A stretch of 42,173 nt of DNA, from positions 1-42,173 of the forward strand of contig JAEEYW010000033.1 in NCBI GenBank assembly GCA_016288305.1. Direction: 5' to 3'. The stretch comes from Bacillales bacterium. Lineage in GTDB: Bacteria; Bacillota_I; Bacilli_A; RF39; UBA660. The position numbers and the translations under genes were made by a program. The notes beneath the pieces were generated by a model. That model ran no database searches. It was given only the letters and a program-made list of their open reading frames with translations, and was not told where the DNA came from. Shown piece after piece: positions 23,272-33,170 of the stretch (positions are counted from its first letter, which is position 1; the number at the start of each line of letters is the position of its first letter).

Positions 23272-23465
23272 AAAAAAAGTGGTAACCAAAGGGCGAAATA
23301 ATCGCGGTACCACCTTTATTTATAACTTAAATAACTATAACGCGTCACCGTTTATATCTTATCCATATAAAGTATCCAAAGTGATTTGTATAATACTTCC
23401 TTATTAGTTTCCACCAGCCACTAACTCTCTTTTAATTTCATATTATACCGTCTTTTTCATCTACT
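23272..23465 (-). promoter_or_regulatory. T-box riboswitch (Ile, specifier AUC)
   Basis: AGAGAG and GGTGGAA Stem I motifs, GTATAATA/TATTATAC stem, specifier ATC at 23383-23385, T-box AAAGGTGGTACCGCG at 23303-23317 (UGGU fits A73), U-tract 23272-23278. Confidence 0.92.
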
Positions 23466-23922
23466 CTAATTCTATTTTTTCAATATCATCAACAACTTCT
23501 AATTGTGTTTCAATAATATCTCTTAATCGTTTTTTAAATACGATAACATTTCTTCTTAAACTATCTGCTTCTCTTTGAATGCTTTCAGATCTCATTAAAG
23601 CTTCATTAATAATTCTATTAGCATTCTTTTTAGCATCGTTTACAATAACATCTCTTTCTTGGTAAGCATTTAATTTAACTTGCTCTGTTGTTCTTTCAGC
23701 CATCATAATAGTTCTTTTTAAAGTCTCTTCCATTCTCACATACTGCTCTTTACTTTGTTTTAAAGCACTATATTCAGCTTCCATATTTTTGTATGCCTTA
23801 AGTTGTTCATCTTTGGCTTTAATCTCTTCCACCATACCTTCAACTTGAGCAATTACTTTATCTAAAAACTTATTAACTTCTTCAGGATCGTATCCTCTAA
23901 TTACACGGCTGAACCTTTCCAT
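23461..23922 (-). CDS. divIVA: Cell division protein DivIVA
   Basis: FSRVIRGYDPEEVNKFLD followed by coiled coil; sepF-divIVA-ileS order; ATG 23922 (SD AGAGGTG). Confidence 0.9.
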   Translation of the reverse strand: MERFSRVIRGYDPEEVNKFLDKVIAQVEGMVEEIKAKDEQLKAYKNMEAEYSALKQSKEQYVRMEETLKRTIMMAERTTEQVKLNAYQERDVIVNDAKKNANRIINEALMRSESIQREADSLRRNVIVFKKRLRDIIETQLEVVDDIEKIELE

Positions 23923-23940
23923 AAGCGTCACCTCTTAAAC

Positions 23941-24351
23941 TTACCATTCAATATCTATATCTGTATTATCGTGAATATCTTTACCATCAGTTTCTTCTGT
24001 TATTTTACCATTTACTTTAACATTGTTTGGTGTACATAAGAATATACCTCCACCAACTTTTTGTAAATCACCACCAATAGCATAAATTGTTCCACTTAAG
24101 AAATCAATTATTCTCTTAGCTTGATCTGAAGTTACTCTTTTTAAATTAACAACTACAGTATTACGTTTTTTAAGCTCATCAGCTATTTGTTGTGTTTCAG
24201 AATAAGCACGAGGTTCTAGTAAAACTAATTTAGTACTACCATCTTCCTCCATAGCCTCAGTTGCTGTAACATCATAAAATTGATTATTTACATCATCACC
24301 CATAATATCAGTTTCAGATGTTGAAAACCATTTTTTTAAATTAATTCCCAT
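23941..24351 (-). CDS. sepF: Cell division protein SepF
   Basis: [43 protein letters not shown] 24351 (SD AAGGAGG). Confidence 0.95.
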
Positions 24352-24452
24352 ATTTATCCTCCTTGTGCGAATACTCATCCACACTACTAACACAATTTTA
24401 TCACAAAATAAAAAAATTGTGAATAAAATTTATATAAAATATTAAATTTTAG

Positions 24453-24461
24453 TGATATAAT
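24453..24461 (+). promoter_or_regulatory. Extended -10 promoter of tRNA-Thr
   Basis: TG-A-TATAAT 8 nt upstream of the tRNA. Confidence 0.55.
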
Positions 24462-30214: not shown

Positions 30215-30216
30215 AA

Positions 30217-31521
30217 TTATCCTTCCTCATGACAATGACATTCATCACAATCACATTCATCATTTAATTTTTCATCTAAATAATAAATCAAATAATCTAA
30301 TTCAATTTGTTCACTTTCTTGTGTATGGTTATTTTTAATTGTTACATAATTGTTTTTAACTTCATCTTCACCAATAATTATAATAAATTTACTATTTAAT
30401 TTATCAGCTTGTTTAAAATTAGACTTCATATTACGTGAACAATAATCAATATCAGTTTTAAAACCATTGAGTCTTAAATTAGTAGCTAAGCGTAAAGCAT
30501 ATTCTTTTTCTGCCTCATCCATATATGTGATATAAGTATCAACGCCATTATCTAAATTTAAATCAATATTCTCAGCATCTAAAGCATTTAAAATTCTTTC
30601 GACACCTAAAGCAAAACCAACAGCTGGTGTTTCAGGTCCATCTAAAGTAGCTACTAAATTATCGTATCTACCACCACCACATAAAACATTTTGACTACCA
30701 AAATCTTTTATTTCAGCAGAAACTTCAAAAACAGTATGTGTATAGTAATCTAATCCTCTTACAATATTTGGATTAACAACATATTCAATATCCATACTTG
30801 TTAAATATTTTTTAACATCTTCAAAATGTTTTTTACTCTCTTCATTTAAATAATCAATTGTTTTAGGTGCATTTTGCATTAACGTATTATTAGCATCTAC
30901 TTTACAATCTAATATTCTTAAAGGATTCTTTTCAAATCTATTATTACAATCCTCACATAATTCATTTAAATGTGGTTTGAAATATTCCATTAAAGCTTCT
31001 TTATATTTTAATCTTGATTCTGTATCACCTAAAGTATTAATATTTACCTTAACATTTTTAAGACCTAGCAATTTAAATAAATTAACTGGTATACTAATAA
31101 CTTCAGCATCAGCTAAAGCATCACTAGTACCTAATACTTCAACACCAAATTGATAGAATTCTCTAAATCTACCTGATTGTGGTCTTTCATATCTAAACAT
31201 AGGACCAAAATACCAAGCTTTAACTGGTACAGCATGATTACCATATAACTTATTCTCAATAAAGCTTCTAACAATACCTGCTGTTCCTTCTGGTCTTAAA
31301 GTCATATTTCTATCTGATCTATCTTTAAAATCATAAGTCTCTTTAGTTACAATATCACTTGTTTCACCTACACCTCTATGAAATAATTCACTAGCTTCAA
31401 ATATAGGTGTTCTAAAATATTCATAATTATATGCTTCCATCATATTTTTAAGCAATTCATGAAGATATAAAACTCTCTTATCATTAATTACATCGTATGT
31501 TCCTTTTGGTTTTTGTATCAT
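30217..31521 (-). CDS. hisS: Histidine--tRNA ligase
   Basis: PKGTYD, LRPEGTAG, FRYERPQSGRFREF, VRGLDYYT, GGGRYD. Confidence 0.97.
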   Translation of the reverse strand: MIQKPKGTYDVINDKRVLYLHELLKNMMEAYNYEYFRTPIFEASELFHRGVGETSDIVTKETYDFKDRSDRNMTLRPEGTAGIVRSFIENKLYGNHAVPVKAWYFGPMFRYERPQSGRFREFYQFGVEVLGTSDALADAEVISIPVNLFKLLGLKNVKVNINTLGDTESRLKYKEALMEYFKPHLNELCEDCNNRFEKNPLRILDCKVDANNTLMQNAPKTIDYLNEESKKHFEDVKKYLTSMDIEYVVNPNIVRGLDYYTHTVFEVSAEIKDFGSQNVLCGGGRYDNLVATLDGPETPAVGFALGVERILNALDAENIDLNLDNGVDTYITYMDEAEKEYALRLATNLRLNGFKTDIDYCSRNMKSNFKQADKLNSKFIIIIGEDEVKNNYVTIKNNHTQESEQIELDYLIYYLDEKLNDECDCDECHCHEEG

Positions 31522-32960
31522 AATCTTCCTCCTATTTTTCTTACTTTACTTTCCATTATGTCTTTTAAAGTATATTCTTTACCATCTTTTGTAATCAATA
31601 TGCATTCGCGATAATCATCAAATGCTTTCTTACCATAACAAATACCCGCATAATCTTTTTTATTATGCAAAACTTCCCATTCACTTTTATGCATAGCATT
31701 TTCAACAAGGAAAGATAATGACTTGGCTCCTTGTTTTAATTCTATTGCCTTGTCAATTATAGCATCAAGAAAGCCTTTTGTCCATCTTAAATCAATATTA
31801 ACATCTTTCAAAGCTGCTTTCTTATCATTCAAAATATTGGTTAAAAGCTTCCTAAAATCTTCTTTTGTTAATTCATTAAAATATGTAAAGATAGAAAACT
31901 TAACTAATAAATCAGTATAGTTCTGCTTTGTTATATTATTAGCGCTAGTACTTTGATATGGCTTATAATTAACAGAATTATCAATATATCCAATTGTACT
32001 TTTTTTAGCTACATCATCAAATGTTGCTATACCTAAAATAATTAAACTAGAAGTATCAAATGGAATAATATATTGCCCGAAATTGACATTATATGTTGTT
32101 TTTTCAAACAATTCATCTACTCTTTTTTTTACGCTATCATTAATAGATATATCTCGAGAGATACCATCAATTAGAATAATACCTCTTTGTGCTCTAGCAA
32201 TATCATTTGTTGATTGCATAATTAAACCAATTAATAAATTTTCCATTTCATATTTATGATTTATAAAATCTTTAATATCACATAAAACAATAGGAACATC
32301 TAAATACTCCGTTAAAGCAAATGCCATTGTATGTTTACCTACACCAGTAGGACCTACAAATAGACATGAGGGTTGACCAACTTTGTTAACGTTATTATTA
32401 AAGAAACCAACAATAATATCTTTTTTAACTTGTTCTTGTCCTATAACAGTTTTGTTCAAAAATTTAGCCATATTATGCACATTAATTTTCTTTTTTGTAT
32501 ATGATATTTGTTCAAGCTGATGATATGGTATAGATTGTTCACTAGGTAATTGTGGTTTAACTTCTTCCACCGCTTCACCTTGCAAAGGTACAATACCGCC
32601 CGATTCTGATTCATAACCTTCATATTGCCTGATAGCATCATTTTTGATAGCTGCGTTGTAAGCTTCATTAAGAAGATGAACTTTATCATTATAAAACCTA
32701 GTCAAAGCATTATTTTTACCATACTTTGCAAGTATATCTTTCTTAGCTGTTGGATAAAATACAGTTTGTGTTTCACCATCTTGCATTGCTTGTTTATCAT
32801 CATCTAAATAATAATAATGATTATCTTTAGTCACAAATAATTTCTTTTTACCATTTGTAACTGTATACCCTTCAACAGCCTTAATAGGTTTGAAAACATA
32901 TACCTGTGGCGTAATCTGACTTCTTTCCATAAGAATACCATATAATATTTCTTTTCCCAC
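31518..32960 (-). CDS. ClpX/HslU-clade AAA+ homologue with degenerate ATPase motifs and unrecognised N-terminal domain
   Basis: LNKTVIGQEQVKK, GPTGVGKH, AQRGIILIDGI, FDTSSL, TIGY, GAKSL; GTG 32960 follows SD AGGAGG (ORF-track start 32990 lies inside the T-box leader). Confidence 0.8.
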   Translation of the reverse strand: MGKEILYGILMERSQITPQVYVFKPIKAVEGYTVTNGKKKLFVTKDNHYYYLDDDKQAMQDGETQTVFYPTAKKDILAKYGKNNALTRFYNDKVHLLNEAYNAAIKNDAIRQYEGYESESGGIVPLQGEAVEEVKPQLPSEQSIPYHQLEQISYTKKKINVHNMAKFLNKTVIGQEQVKKDIIVGFFNNNVNKVGQPSCLFVGPTGVGKHTMAFALTEYLDVPIVLCDIKDFINHKYEMENLLIGLIMQSTNDIARAQRGIILIDGISRDISINDSVKKRVDELFEKTTYNVNFGQYIIPFDTSSLIILGIATFDDVAKKSTIGYIDNSVNYKPYQSTSANNITKQNYTDLLVKFSIFTYFNELTKEDFRKLLTNILNDKKAALKDVNIDLRWTKGFLDAIIDKAIELKQGAKSLSFLVENAMHKSEWEVLHNKKDYAGICYGKKAFDDYRECILITKDGKEYTLKDIMESKVRKIGGRL

Positions 32961-32977
32961 AACAAACCCTCCTAAAC

Positions 32978-33170
32978 AAAAAAAATCCATAAACTCTAAG
33001 GACTCATTGAAAGCGGTGCCACCTTAGTTTATAGATTTTAACTATACTCTTTATTCTCTATAACGTGAGATAACGATTACCATCGGTATTTAGTGTCTTC
33101 TTTAAAAAGTATTTAATGCTTTCACCACAACGCATCTTCTCTAAAAAATACTATTTCAAATACTCCTCTA
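32978..33170 (-). promoter_or_regulatory. T-box riboswitch (Asp, specifier GAC)
   Basis: AGAGA and GGTGAAA Stem I motifs, GAA-GAC-A specifier (33095-33097), Stem II CGAT/ATCG, IIA/B with CGTTA, Stem III, T-box AAGGTGGCACCGC at 33013-33025 (UGGC fits G73). Confidence 0.92.

Follow-up and report, generated by a model that had tools for sequence, protein, structure and literature searches.

T-box leaders of a Bacillales genome whose terminators appear to be rewired around Stem III or the bulge

The T-box, a textbook riboswitch, is also a target for antibiotics, and its switching is always drawn as a contest between the antiterminator helices A1 and A2 and a terminator. Here, we describe three T-box leaders whose terminators are wired otherwise. 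They lie on the minus strand of a stretch of 42,173 nucleotides (nt) from a Bacillales bacterium (contig JAEEYW010000033.1 of assembly GCA_016288305.1, our contig C51; hereafter the window, whose positions are used throughout), before ileS, before glyS and before an operon of an AAA ATPase gene, hisS and aspS. In the textbook T-box, the terminator has as its 5' strand the 3' strands of A1 and A2, as set out in two reviews (PMC7583486, 2020; PMC10907184, 2024; these and all other papers are cited for the portions of text available). Through a latch onto the minor groove, the string of purines that flanks Stem III stabilises the stacking between the tRNA 3' end and A1, an engagement that the aminoacyl group can block (PMC7583486). 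A published model has Stem III itself stacked on A1, at the proximal end of that helix (PMC5570125).

The closest described systems are the class I T-boxes (RF00230), exemplified by tyrS and glyQS of Bacillus subtilis. Like these, the leaders of the window place a specifier in Stem I, a UGGNACC bulge between A1 and A2 and purine flanks around Stem III, and end in an intrinsic terminator before an aminoacyl-tRNA synthetase gene, with OFF as the default state. Unlike these, the terminator of the Gly and Asp leaders takes Stem III and the adjoining linker and leaves A1 and A2 intact, while that of the Ile leader takes the bulge and the 5' strand of A1. The actinobacterial ileS T-boxes, of the Mycobacterium tuberculosis type, come near in logic to what we propose below, since a pre-formed antisequestrator intermediate binds both forms of the tRNA (PMC10907184). 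However, they mask the ribosome-binding site, whereas the leaders described here are predicted to terminate transcription, and they carry Stem II as well as Stem IIA/B, both of which the Gly leader lacks. Stem Sa, in the glyS T-box of Staphylococcus aureus, is likewise a lineage-specific remodelling of the terminator and antiterminator of a glycyl T-box, but it is a 42-nt insertion that gives a two-stem terminator whose second stem is conventional, with no competition for Stem III described in the text available (PMC4574755). A terminator that encloses the antiterminator, or that competes with Stem III or the bulge, was not found described in the available text of PMC7583486, PMC10907184, PMC7778990 (the TBDB paper), PMC11404447 (a 2024 glycyl T-box study), PMC5570125, PMC4574755, PMC2494555 and PMC3375634, nor by full-text searches, a coverage that leaves outside it key older T-box papers, figures and supplements. 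By their sensing core, the leaders belong to the T-box family; they fail the defining feature of its canonical expression platform. The wiring has the look of a genuine but overlooked variant of a familiar RNA switch.

We consider it probable that all three are genuine transcriptional T-box leaders, responding to tRNA-Ile (AUC), tRNA-Gly (GGA) and tRNA-Asp (GAC), with a canonical sensing core and rewired expression platforms. None reaches the gathering score of the Rfam T-box model RF00230 (93 bits): the Asp leader scores 84.4 bits (32995-33179, E 1.3e-17), the Ile leader 82 bits (23286-23469, E 5.5e-17) and the Gly leader 34.1 bits (27300-27439, E 2.7e-6), the last being picked up only in a whole-genome search. 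All three have the 7-nt bulge between A1 and A2, as UGGAACC (Gly), UGGCACC (Asp) and UGGUACC (Ile), in which the variable base presumably fits the discriminator base of the respective tRNA. The specifier codons fit the genes downstream: AUC with IleRS, GGA with GlyRS and GAC with the hisS-aspS operon. Genes for tRNA-Ile(GAU) and, twice, tRNA-Gly(UCC) are present in the assembly. The purine flanks of Stem III (5'-RRRxG..AA-3') are present in the Gly leader (AAGAG-AUUCU..AGAAU-AAA) and the Asp leader (AAGAG-UAUAG..CUAUA-AA) and missing from the Ile leader, which has no Stem III. In each leader, a hairpin is followed directly by a U-tract, the lower helices of 8-14 bp abutting UUUUU or longer; a scan for terminators with loops limited to 3-8 nt does not list these hairpins, owing to that limit. 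The initial annotation, made from the letters of the window, had stated that none of the three has a textbook terminator, and this holds: nowhere is the 5' arm of the terminator the 3' strand of the antiterminator.

The Gly leader is about 115 nt long in all. A promoter, identified by consensus match only (TTGACT-17-TAAAAT, 10/12 positions; 27407..27435, minus strand), precedes an ultrashort Stem I (27367..27394) in which a K-turn-like GCGAUGA base and a 3-bp helix close an 8-nt loop holding the specifier GGA (27380-27378). Neither a distal platform nor Stem II is present. Over seven Gly leaders of the genus, nine pairs are predicted in Stem I, and three of them have changed on both sides. Stem III, AUUCU-UCU-AGAAU (27338..27350), is followed by the antiterminator core (27301..27335), with A1 AUAAGG/CCUUAU, the bulge at 27329-27323 and A2 GCUCUA-UAAA-UAGAGU. 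The loop and 3' arm of Stem III, CUUCUAGA (27347-27340), are the 5' arm of the lower helix of the terminator, and pair with the 3' arm UCUAGAAG (27297-27290), after which the U-tract UUUUU follows at once (27289-27285; arm and tract together 27285..27297). This helix prolongs A1 downward, so that A1, bulge and A2 sit intact inside one hairpin that ends at the U-tract.

The ultrashort Stem I is also seen at nine further loci (L011, L015, L018, L028, L030, L031, L040, L044 and L055), with a GYGAUGA base, a 3-4-bp helix and the specifier GGA, except for GGC in L044. The Clostridium glyS leaders with the same terminator wiring retain a full-length Stem I. Actinobacterial ileS T-boxes have an ultrashort Stem I resembling that of the Gly leader, and their OFF hairpin uses the 3' strand of the antisequestrator.

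In the Asp leader, the geometry recurs with unrelated letters. Its promoter, again known by consensus match only, is TTGACA-17-TATAAT (12/12; 33188..33216, minus strand), and the leader (32995..33179) comprises Stem I with the specifier GAC (33097-33095), a Stem II region, Stem III and the antiterminator, with its bulge at 33021-33015. Stem III, UAUAG-UUAAAAU-CUAUA (33046-33030), together with the linker occupies 33026..33046. From within this segment comes the 5' arm of the lower helix, AAAAUCUAUAAACU (33039-33026), which pairs with AGUUUAUGGAUUUU (32995-32982); what remains of the U-tract is UUUU (32981-32978; the whole 32978..32995). Here too the lower helix prolongs A1, encloses A1, bulge and A2 intact and brings the hairpin to its end at the U-tract. 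The pairing is kept in an orthologous Asp leader of another genus (L269). For both leaders, the initial annotation had named these pairings, and we located the strings at the positions given above on the minus strand; in each case the hairpin is the minimum free energy (MFE) structure of RNAfold. Its claim that the terminator encloses an intact antiterminator and excludes Stem III instead is borne out for Gly and Asp, whose terminator 5' arm is shared with Stem III and linker.

Hairpins were folded with RNAfold and each compared with 200 shuffles. The MFE is -21.0 kcal/mol for Gly (z -3.98, 0/200 shuffles as good), -17.1 kcal/mol for Asp (z -2.14, 5/200) and -18.3 kcal/mol for Ile (z -3.96, 0/200). 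With the upstream arm removed, nothing terminator-like remains of Gly (-6.8 kcal/mol, 95/200 shuffles as good), and Asp is left with a weak residual GAGUCC/GGAUUU pairing around an 11-nt loop (-5.5 kcal/mol, 134/200). Shuffled sequence does as well as these remainders, so that both leaders are without a usable canonical terminator, and the possibility that canonical terminators fold more stably than the enclosing ones, raised by the initial annotation, does not apply to them. Relative to a fold with the 3' arm unpaired, the terminated fold gains -11.6 (Gly), -8.5 (Asp) and -8.9 kcal/mol (Ile), while Stem III by itself is worth -1.2 (Gly) and -1.7 kcal/mol (Asp).

The Ile leader follows a separate design. 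It starts right after the divIVA stop codon (23286..23469, minus strand), with the specifier AUC at 23385-23383 and the bulge UGGUACC at 23312-23306. The model columns for Stem III are gapped, as they are in the other ileS leaders of the genus. The terminator (23272..23316) consists of the 5' arm AAGGUGGUACC (23316-23306), which is the 5' strand of A1 plus the UGGUACC bulge, the 3' arm GGUUACCACUU (23287-23277) and a U-tract reaching 23272; between the arms lie A2, GCGA-UUAUU-UCGC, and an unpaired CCUUU. It thus encloses A2 only and excludes both A1 and the pairing with the tRNA 3' end. The initial annotation had counted Ile as a related enclosing variant, which we do not uphold: AAGGUGGUACC/GGUUACCACUU is incompatible with A1, so the antiterminator is not enclosed intact. 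By taking up the bulge and the 5' strand of A1, this terminator enters into direct competition with both A1 and the tRNA 3' end.

Among 22 ileS upstream regions scored in the genus, 18 have the bulge-sequestering hairpin, three were called canonical and one had no T-box; one of the three canonical calls (L244) is really an adjacent Phe-type leader. As the 5' arm is invariant T-box sequence, only one-sided variation is possible, and the 3' arms of the genus (for example GGUAUCAUCU, GGUAUCACCUUU, GGUAUUACUUU, GGUAUCGCUUU and GGUGUCAUCU) differ only by changes that keep the pairing, namely C/U opposite G and A/G opposite U. The 3' arm of the window, GGUUACCACUUU, contains ACCA, the sequence of the tRNA 3' end. 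A Pro leader elsewhere in the same genome (contig C28) is also bulge-sequestering and without Stem III. The ProRS that it precedes (L007, C28:4400-5882, plus strand) has 433 aa and no insertion, and is 38-41% identical to the ProRS of 563-568 aa found in the genus. ProRS was found in 11 of the 29 other genomes, and none of the 11 regions upstream of these has a T-box. The Pro leader is therefore without comparative support, as the 11 enzymes differ in type and carry no T-box, and proS and its leader may have been acquired together.

The lower helix of the enclosing leaders is conserved by compensatory change. In Gly leaders of the genus, CUUCUAGA/UCUAGAAG is replaced by CUAUUAGA/UCUAAUAG, which amounts to two double changes at Stem III loop positions, unconstrained by Stem III itself; further relatives have 11-12-bp versions of the helix. 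The enclosing hairpin is the fold of each of 21 Gly leaders tested (from the own genome, the genus, other gut Bacilli and Clostridium; L095, L047 and L053 left out), and the loop positions of Stem III show several pair types. At position -14, the Clostridium-type leaders have UA (6), AU (2), CG (1) or no pair (2), and at position -16 the gut-Bacilli type has AU (4), CG (3), UA (2) or UG (1). These pair types were read from the fold of each sequence, as MAFFT with RNAalifold on 11 Clostridium-type leaders recovered only Stem III and the antiterminator and left the 3' arms out of register.

Formal counts were made on a MAFFT alignment of 24 enclosing Asp, Arg, Tyr and Phe leaders (22 of the genus, together with the Asp and Tyr leaders of the own genome); an Infernal-model alignment that mixes canonical with enclosing leaders was excluded from them. 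Nine Arg rows of the MAFFT alignment are one column out of register, and the counts stand despite that. In the terminator pairing, 90.1% of 503 cells are paired, a percentage inflated by the picking of the rows with a fold-based classifier; once the 3' partner has been slid by 1-3 columns, 39-58% are. Eight of its 22 pairs change on both sides, which 1 of 500 shuffles matched, and its covariation score is 0.221, compared with 0.127 for shuffles (0/500) and at most 0.107 for slid partners. Stem III on the same alignment has 95.6% of 114 cells paired, double changes in three of five pairs and a covariation score of 0.323 against 0.155 shuffled (0/500). Both alternative pairings are thus kept with compensatory changes, in the Gly leaders and in the 24-leader alignment, the covariation that the initial annotation had proposed to look for. 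Two conserved, mutually exclusive partners of a single arm, here the 3' arm of Stem III, mark a switching element. Stem III keeps its flanks, AAGxG on the 5' side and AA on the 3' side, and the first pair of A2 is G-U in 18 of 23 rows of this set.

The arms are also specific to their leaders. Cognate arms of 46 enclosing leaders pair at a mean of -11.1 kcal/mol, versus -5.0 kcal/mol (sd 2.2, n=1714) for arms from foreign families and -4.3 kcal/mol for shuffled ones. No foreign arm equalled the cognate one in 24 of the 46, and in the other 22 between 1 and 5 of 35-43 did. Judged by these alignments and arm exchanges, the enclosing helix is not a chance pairing, and its arms co-vary within and between leader families.

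The own genome has eight T-boxes, of which two are canonical (pheS and thrS), four enclosing (Gly, Asp, tyrS and a MurL-like gene) and two bulge-sequestering (Ile and proS). The suggestion of a new platform class across the leaders of the window therefore stands for Gly and Asp; it does not stand as a trait of the genome, a quarter of whose T-boxes are canonical, and the form also occurs elsewhere. The MurL-like gene is an unusual T-box target: the enclosing leader L002 (C40:4563-4742, plus strand) precedes a protein of 444 aa whose best NCBIfam match is MurL UDP-MurNAc-L-Ala-L-Glu epimerase, at 230.7 bits with a cut-off of 700.

In 30 relatives, 80 of 253 Rfam T-box matches, drawn from a subset of 150, were sorted with the classifier. 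The genus contributed 66 regions, called canonical (39), enclosing (22), bulge-overlapping (4) or without motif (1), none being left without a call. Four regions of a genome of the same order gave three canonical and one bulge-overlapping, with no enclosing, motif-less or uncalled region, and ten regions of more distant genomes of the class gave seven canonical, two without motif and one without call, with none enclosing or bulge-overlapping. Two of the bulge-overlapping calls in the genus were looked at singly: L126 is a U-run artefact, and the hairpin of L156 begins within the bulge, in its ACC, and extends across A2. This first classifier mis-called leaders with a U-run inside or just after the A1 3' strand (L047, L053, L065, L126, L268, L292 and several from Clostridium). 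A second, relaxed classifier, which again found 22 of the 66 genus leaders enclosing, mended some of these errors and made new ones (in L055, a Stem I loop was taken as the bulge), and doubtful leaders were folded individually. Every scored enclosing hairpin ends directly at a run of at least five U.

With one representative identified per family, the genes after the 22 enclosing genus leaders are argS (9), aspS (8), pheS (3), tyrS (1, L184) and a gene other than tyrS (1, L190). T-box leaders precede eight of 30 GlyRS loci taken from the genus, seven of them intact and one (L038) degenerate. In a collection of species, 24 of 80 GlyRS loci have the bulge motif, one of them (L056) falsely, within coding sequence; the 23 true glyS leaders are enclosing in 17 cases and canonical in six. 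Enclosing glyS leaders occur in Clostridium punense, C. hydrogenum, C. subterminale, C. culturomicium, C. frigoriphilum, C. disporicum, C. rectalis and C. sporogenes. In two Clostridium genomes, the glyS leader is the only enclosing one, 1 of 20 regions in each (20/20 and 20/26 matches covered), while 13 and 15 regions are canonical by the second classifier and the remainder unscored or doubtful. We searched 151 genomes of the class with a covariance model of the enclosing form and inspected 29 loci, each the best match of a genome other than the own. Of these, 18 are enclosing, nine of ten from other genera of the family and nine of 19 from five further families; selection by the search model biases this sample, which yields no frequency. 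Within a single gene family, pheS, the leaders are canonical in most species of the genus, including the own (C9:5194-5374; also compared were L141, L160, L161, L165, L170, L175, L178, L183 and L187), and enclosing in three (L159, L174 and L180). The two forms differ mainly in a 3' arm of about 10 nt, Stem III and the T-box core being very similar.

On balance, we favour an enclosing terminator with Stem III and linker as the switching element in the Gly and Asp leaders, and a bulge-sequestering one in the Ile and Pro leaders. The structures, with their conservation, covariation and spread, are observed; from them we infer how tRNA and termination would be coupled. Since A1, bulge and A2 stay folded inside the terminator, the element that it excludes is Stem III with its flanking purines and not A1 or A2. 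The 8-14 nt that lie 3' of the antiterminator are complementary to the linker and to the loop and 3' arm of Stem III. This downstream strand would nucleate on the single-stranded linker beside A1 and then displace the weak Stem III, extending A1 into a long hairpin at the U-tract, where RNA polymerase would terminate. When uncharged tRNA is bound, the purines flanking Stem III would dock on the helix of tRNA 3' end and bulge, as they do in canonical T-boxes. Docking would hide the linker, which is the toehold of the invasion, and lock Stem III, so that no invasion takes place before the polymerase has passed the U-tract. With charged tRNA or none, the latch would be disengaged and strand invasion would complete the terminator. 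The initial annotation had proposed that tRNA stabilises Stem III and so blocks termination, a suggestion that fits the published role of the flanking purines. For the Ile and Pro leaders, the contest would be over one UGGU, claimed by the downstream strand and by the tRNA 3' end, with the strand competing against A1 as well. A rule common to the three designs could then be that the 3' arm of the terminator attacks part of the discriminator fold stabilised by tRNA.

Several points weigh against this reading. As the terminator retains A1, bulge and A2, either state could in principle offer its bulge to tRNA, and the decision would rest wholly on the docking of a Stem III worth roughly -1 to -2 kcal/mol, whereas the lower helix gains -8 to -12 kcal/mol. 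Two of five measures for Stem III are not above shuffles (double-change pairs, reached by 69 of 500; further pair types, by 495 of 500). The enclosing rows behind the arm-pairing, 24-leader and 21-Gly counts were all picked by the fold-based classifier, with percent paired inflated as a result, and they are mutually related and not independent. The assembly, 95% complete, contains no gene for tRNA-Asp. Finally, two loci with a degenerate bulge, GGGAAAGUG in L038 (upstream of glyS, at a contig end) and UAGUACC in L275, keep the hairpin of Stem III and downstream strand together with the U-tract.

The alternative that survives best, though we think it unlikely, is that the lower helix is indeed the terminator and tRNA blocks it otherwise than through Stem III, which would be an overlapping bystander. 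The tRNA and leader might occupy the base of A1 sterically or by stacking, or slowed folding of A1 might delay the closure of the large loop. That A1, bulge and A2 are common to both states, that Stem III alone is very weak and that the Ile and Pro leaders presumably function without any Stem III all agree with such a route. Against it, Stem III is kept with compensatory changes on the very alignment that supports the lower helix, its purine flanks are retained, and the 5' arm of the lower helix always covers bases of Stem III and linker, despite the differing sequences of the families.

Much less probable is that the leaders are decaying or constitutive attenuators, plain terminators with basal readthrough whose tRNA sensing is lost. 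The hairpin, kept by L038 and L275 despite their degenerate bulges, can thus remain as a plain terminator or within a switch in decay, and these two may themselves be decaying switches left as plain attenuators; the genomes, of about 1 Mb, are reduced, and many relatives in the genus have no leader at all before glyS. The leaders of the window, however, have an intact UGGNACC with a variable base matching the discriminator, fitting specifiers, purine flanks and a G-U pair above the bulge, and the same design is found in free-living Clostridium, in glyS leaders with a full Stem I.

There is very little to recommend a weak canonical terminator as the acting one, with the long complementarity to Stem III incidental. 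A pairing of 6 bp with an 11-nt loop can be drawn for Asp (GAGUCC/GGAUUU), as can, by eye, AGUCC/GGAUU for the Tyr leader on contig C39, but the Asp fold is the one that most shuffles equalled, Gly has no such pairing, and GGA is missing from most Asp leaders of the genus while the enclosing arm is kept and co-varies. Equally remote is a role of the long, AU-rich hairpin in RNA stability, processing or translation control, for which nothing specific speaks, and which sits poorly with scored hairpins ending directly at at least five U, with a ribosome-binding site 3' of the U-tract and outside the hairpin (Gly and Asp), and with a similarly AU-rich terminator-like hairpin after the own aspS.

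The genome behind the window is metagenome-assembled, with 1.02 Mb in 73 contigs and 28% G+C. The glycine--tRNA ligase gene downstream of the Gly leader (25864..27264, this and all genes of the three loci on the minus strand unless stated) encodes 466 aa of the dimeric class II type; the closest named match of the protein is from 'Firmicutes bacterium CAG:582' (84% identity), other near matches being from uncultured gut 'Bacilli' or 'Tenericutes' genomes. The operon after the Asp leader (28904..32960) comprises a ClpX-like AAA ATPase of 480 aa with a GTG start (31518-32960), histidine--tRNA ligase (30217-31521) and an aspartate/asparagine-type class II ligase (28904-30214), at the end of which lies the AU-rich terminator-like hairpin (28905-28882). 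A search for the AAA ATPase in 29 further genomes of the genus found a relative in one (35% identity) and yielded no orthologous Asp-operon leaders; the Asp leaders of the genus are followed by a bacterial-type aspS and not by an AAA ATPase operon. Between that terminator and the Gly leader, an open reading frame of 459 aa (27436-28815, minus strand) matches no Pfam or NCBIfam family and has a promoter-like site of its own (28872-28844). The isoleucine--tRNA ligase gene (20161..23250) begins with ATG at 23250. Gene order around its leader (23461-24540) is sepF, divIVA, Ile T-box and ileS, which we take to be the neighbourhood found in B. subtilis as well. A tRNA-Thr(CGU) gene lies at 24470-24540, on the strand opposite to divIVA and the Ile leader, and a tRNA-Lys(CUU) gene at 16721-16793.

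Taken beyond the window, the comparison tentatively suggests, with rather less assurance than we attach to the individual leaders, that T-boxes have at least two further platform designs that are ancient, are shared by reduced gut Bacilli and the glyS leaders of Clostridium, are interchangeable with the canonical one within one gene family (pheS) and are undescribed. In the first, the terminator would be an extension of the antiterminator, with Stem III and the linker as the true switching element, and the terminated RNA would retain the antiterminator, possibly with the tRNA 3' end still bound; in the second, the 3' arm of the terminator would pair with the bulge in place of the tRNA 3' end. 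If many natural T-boxes do switch through Stem III or the bulge, Stem III would move from helper to decision element, a role that would be directly testable in the glyS leaders of cultivable Clostridium. Annotation and thermodynamic surveys that presume the canonical overlap would mis-describe such leaders. The rewiring of a platform would also be cheap, at about 10 nt between canonical and enclosing pheS leaders, which would be useful for understanding riboswitch evolution and for engineering.

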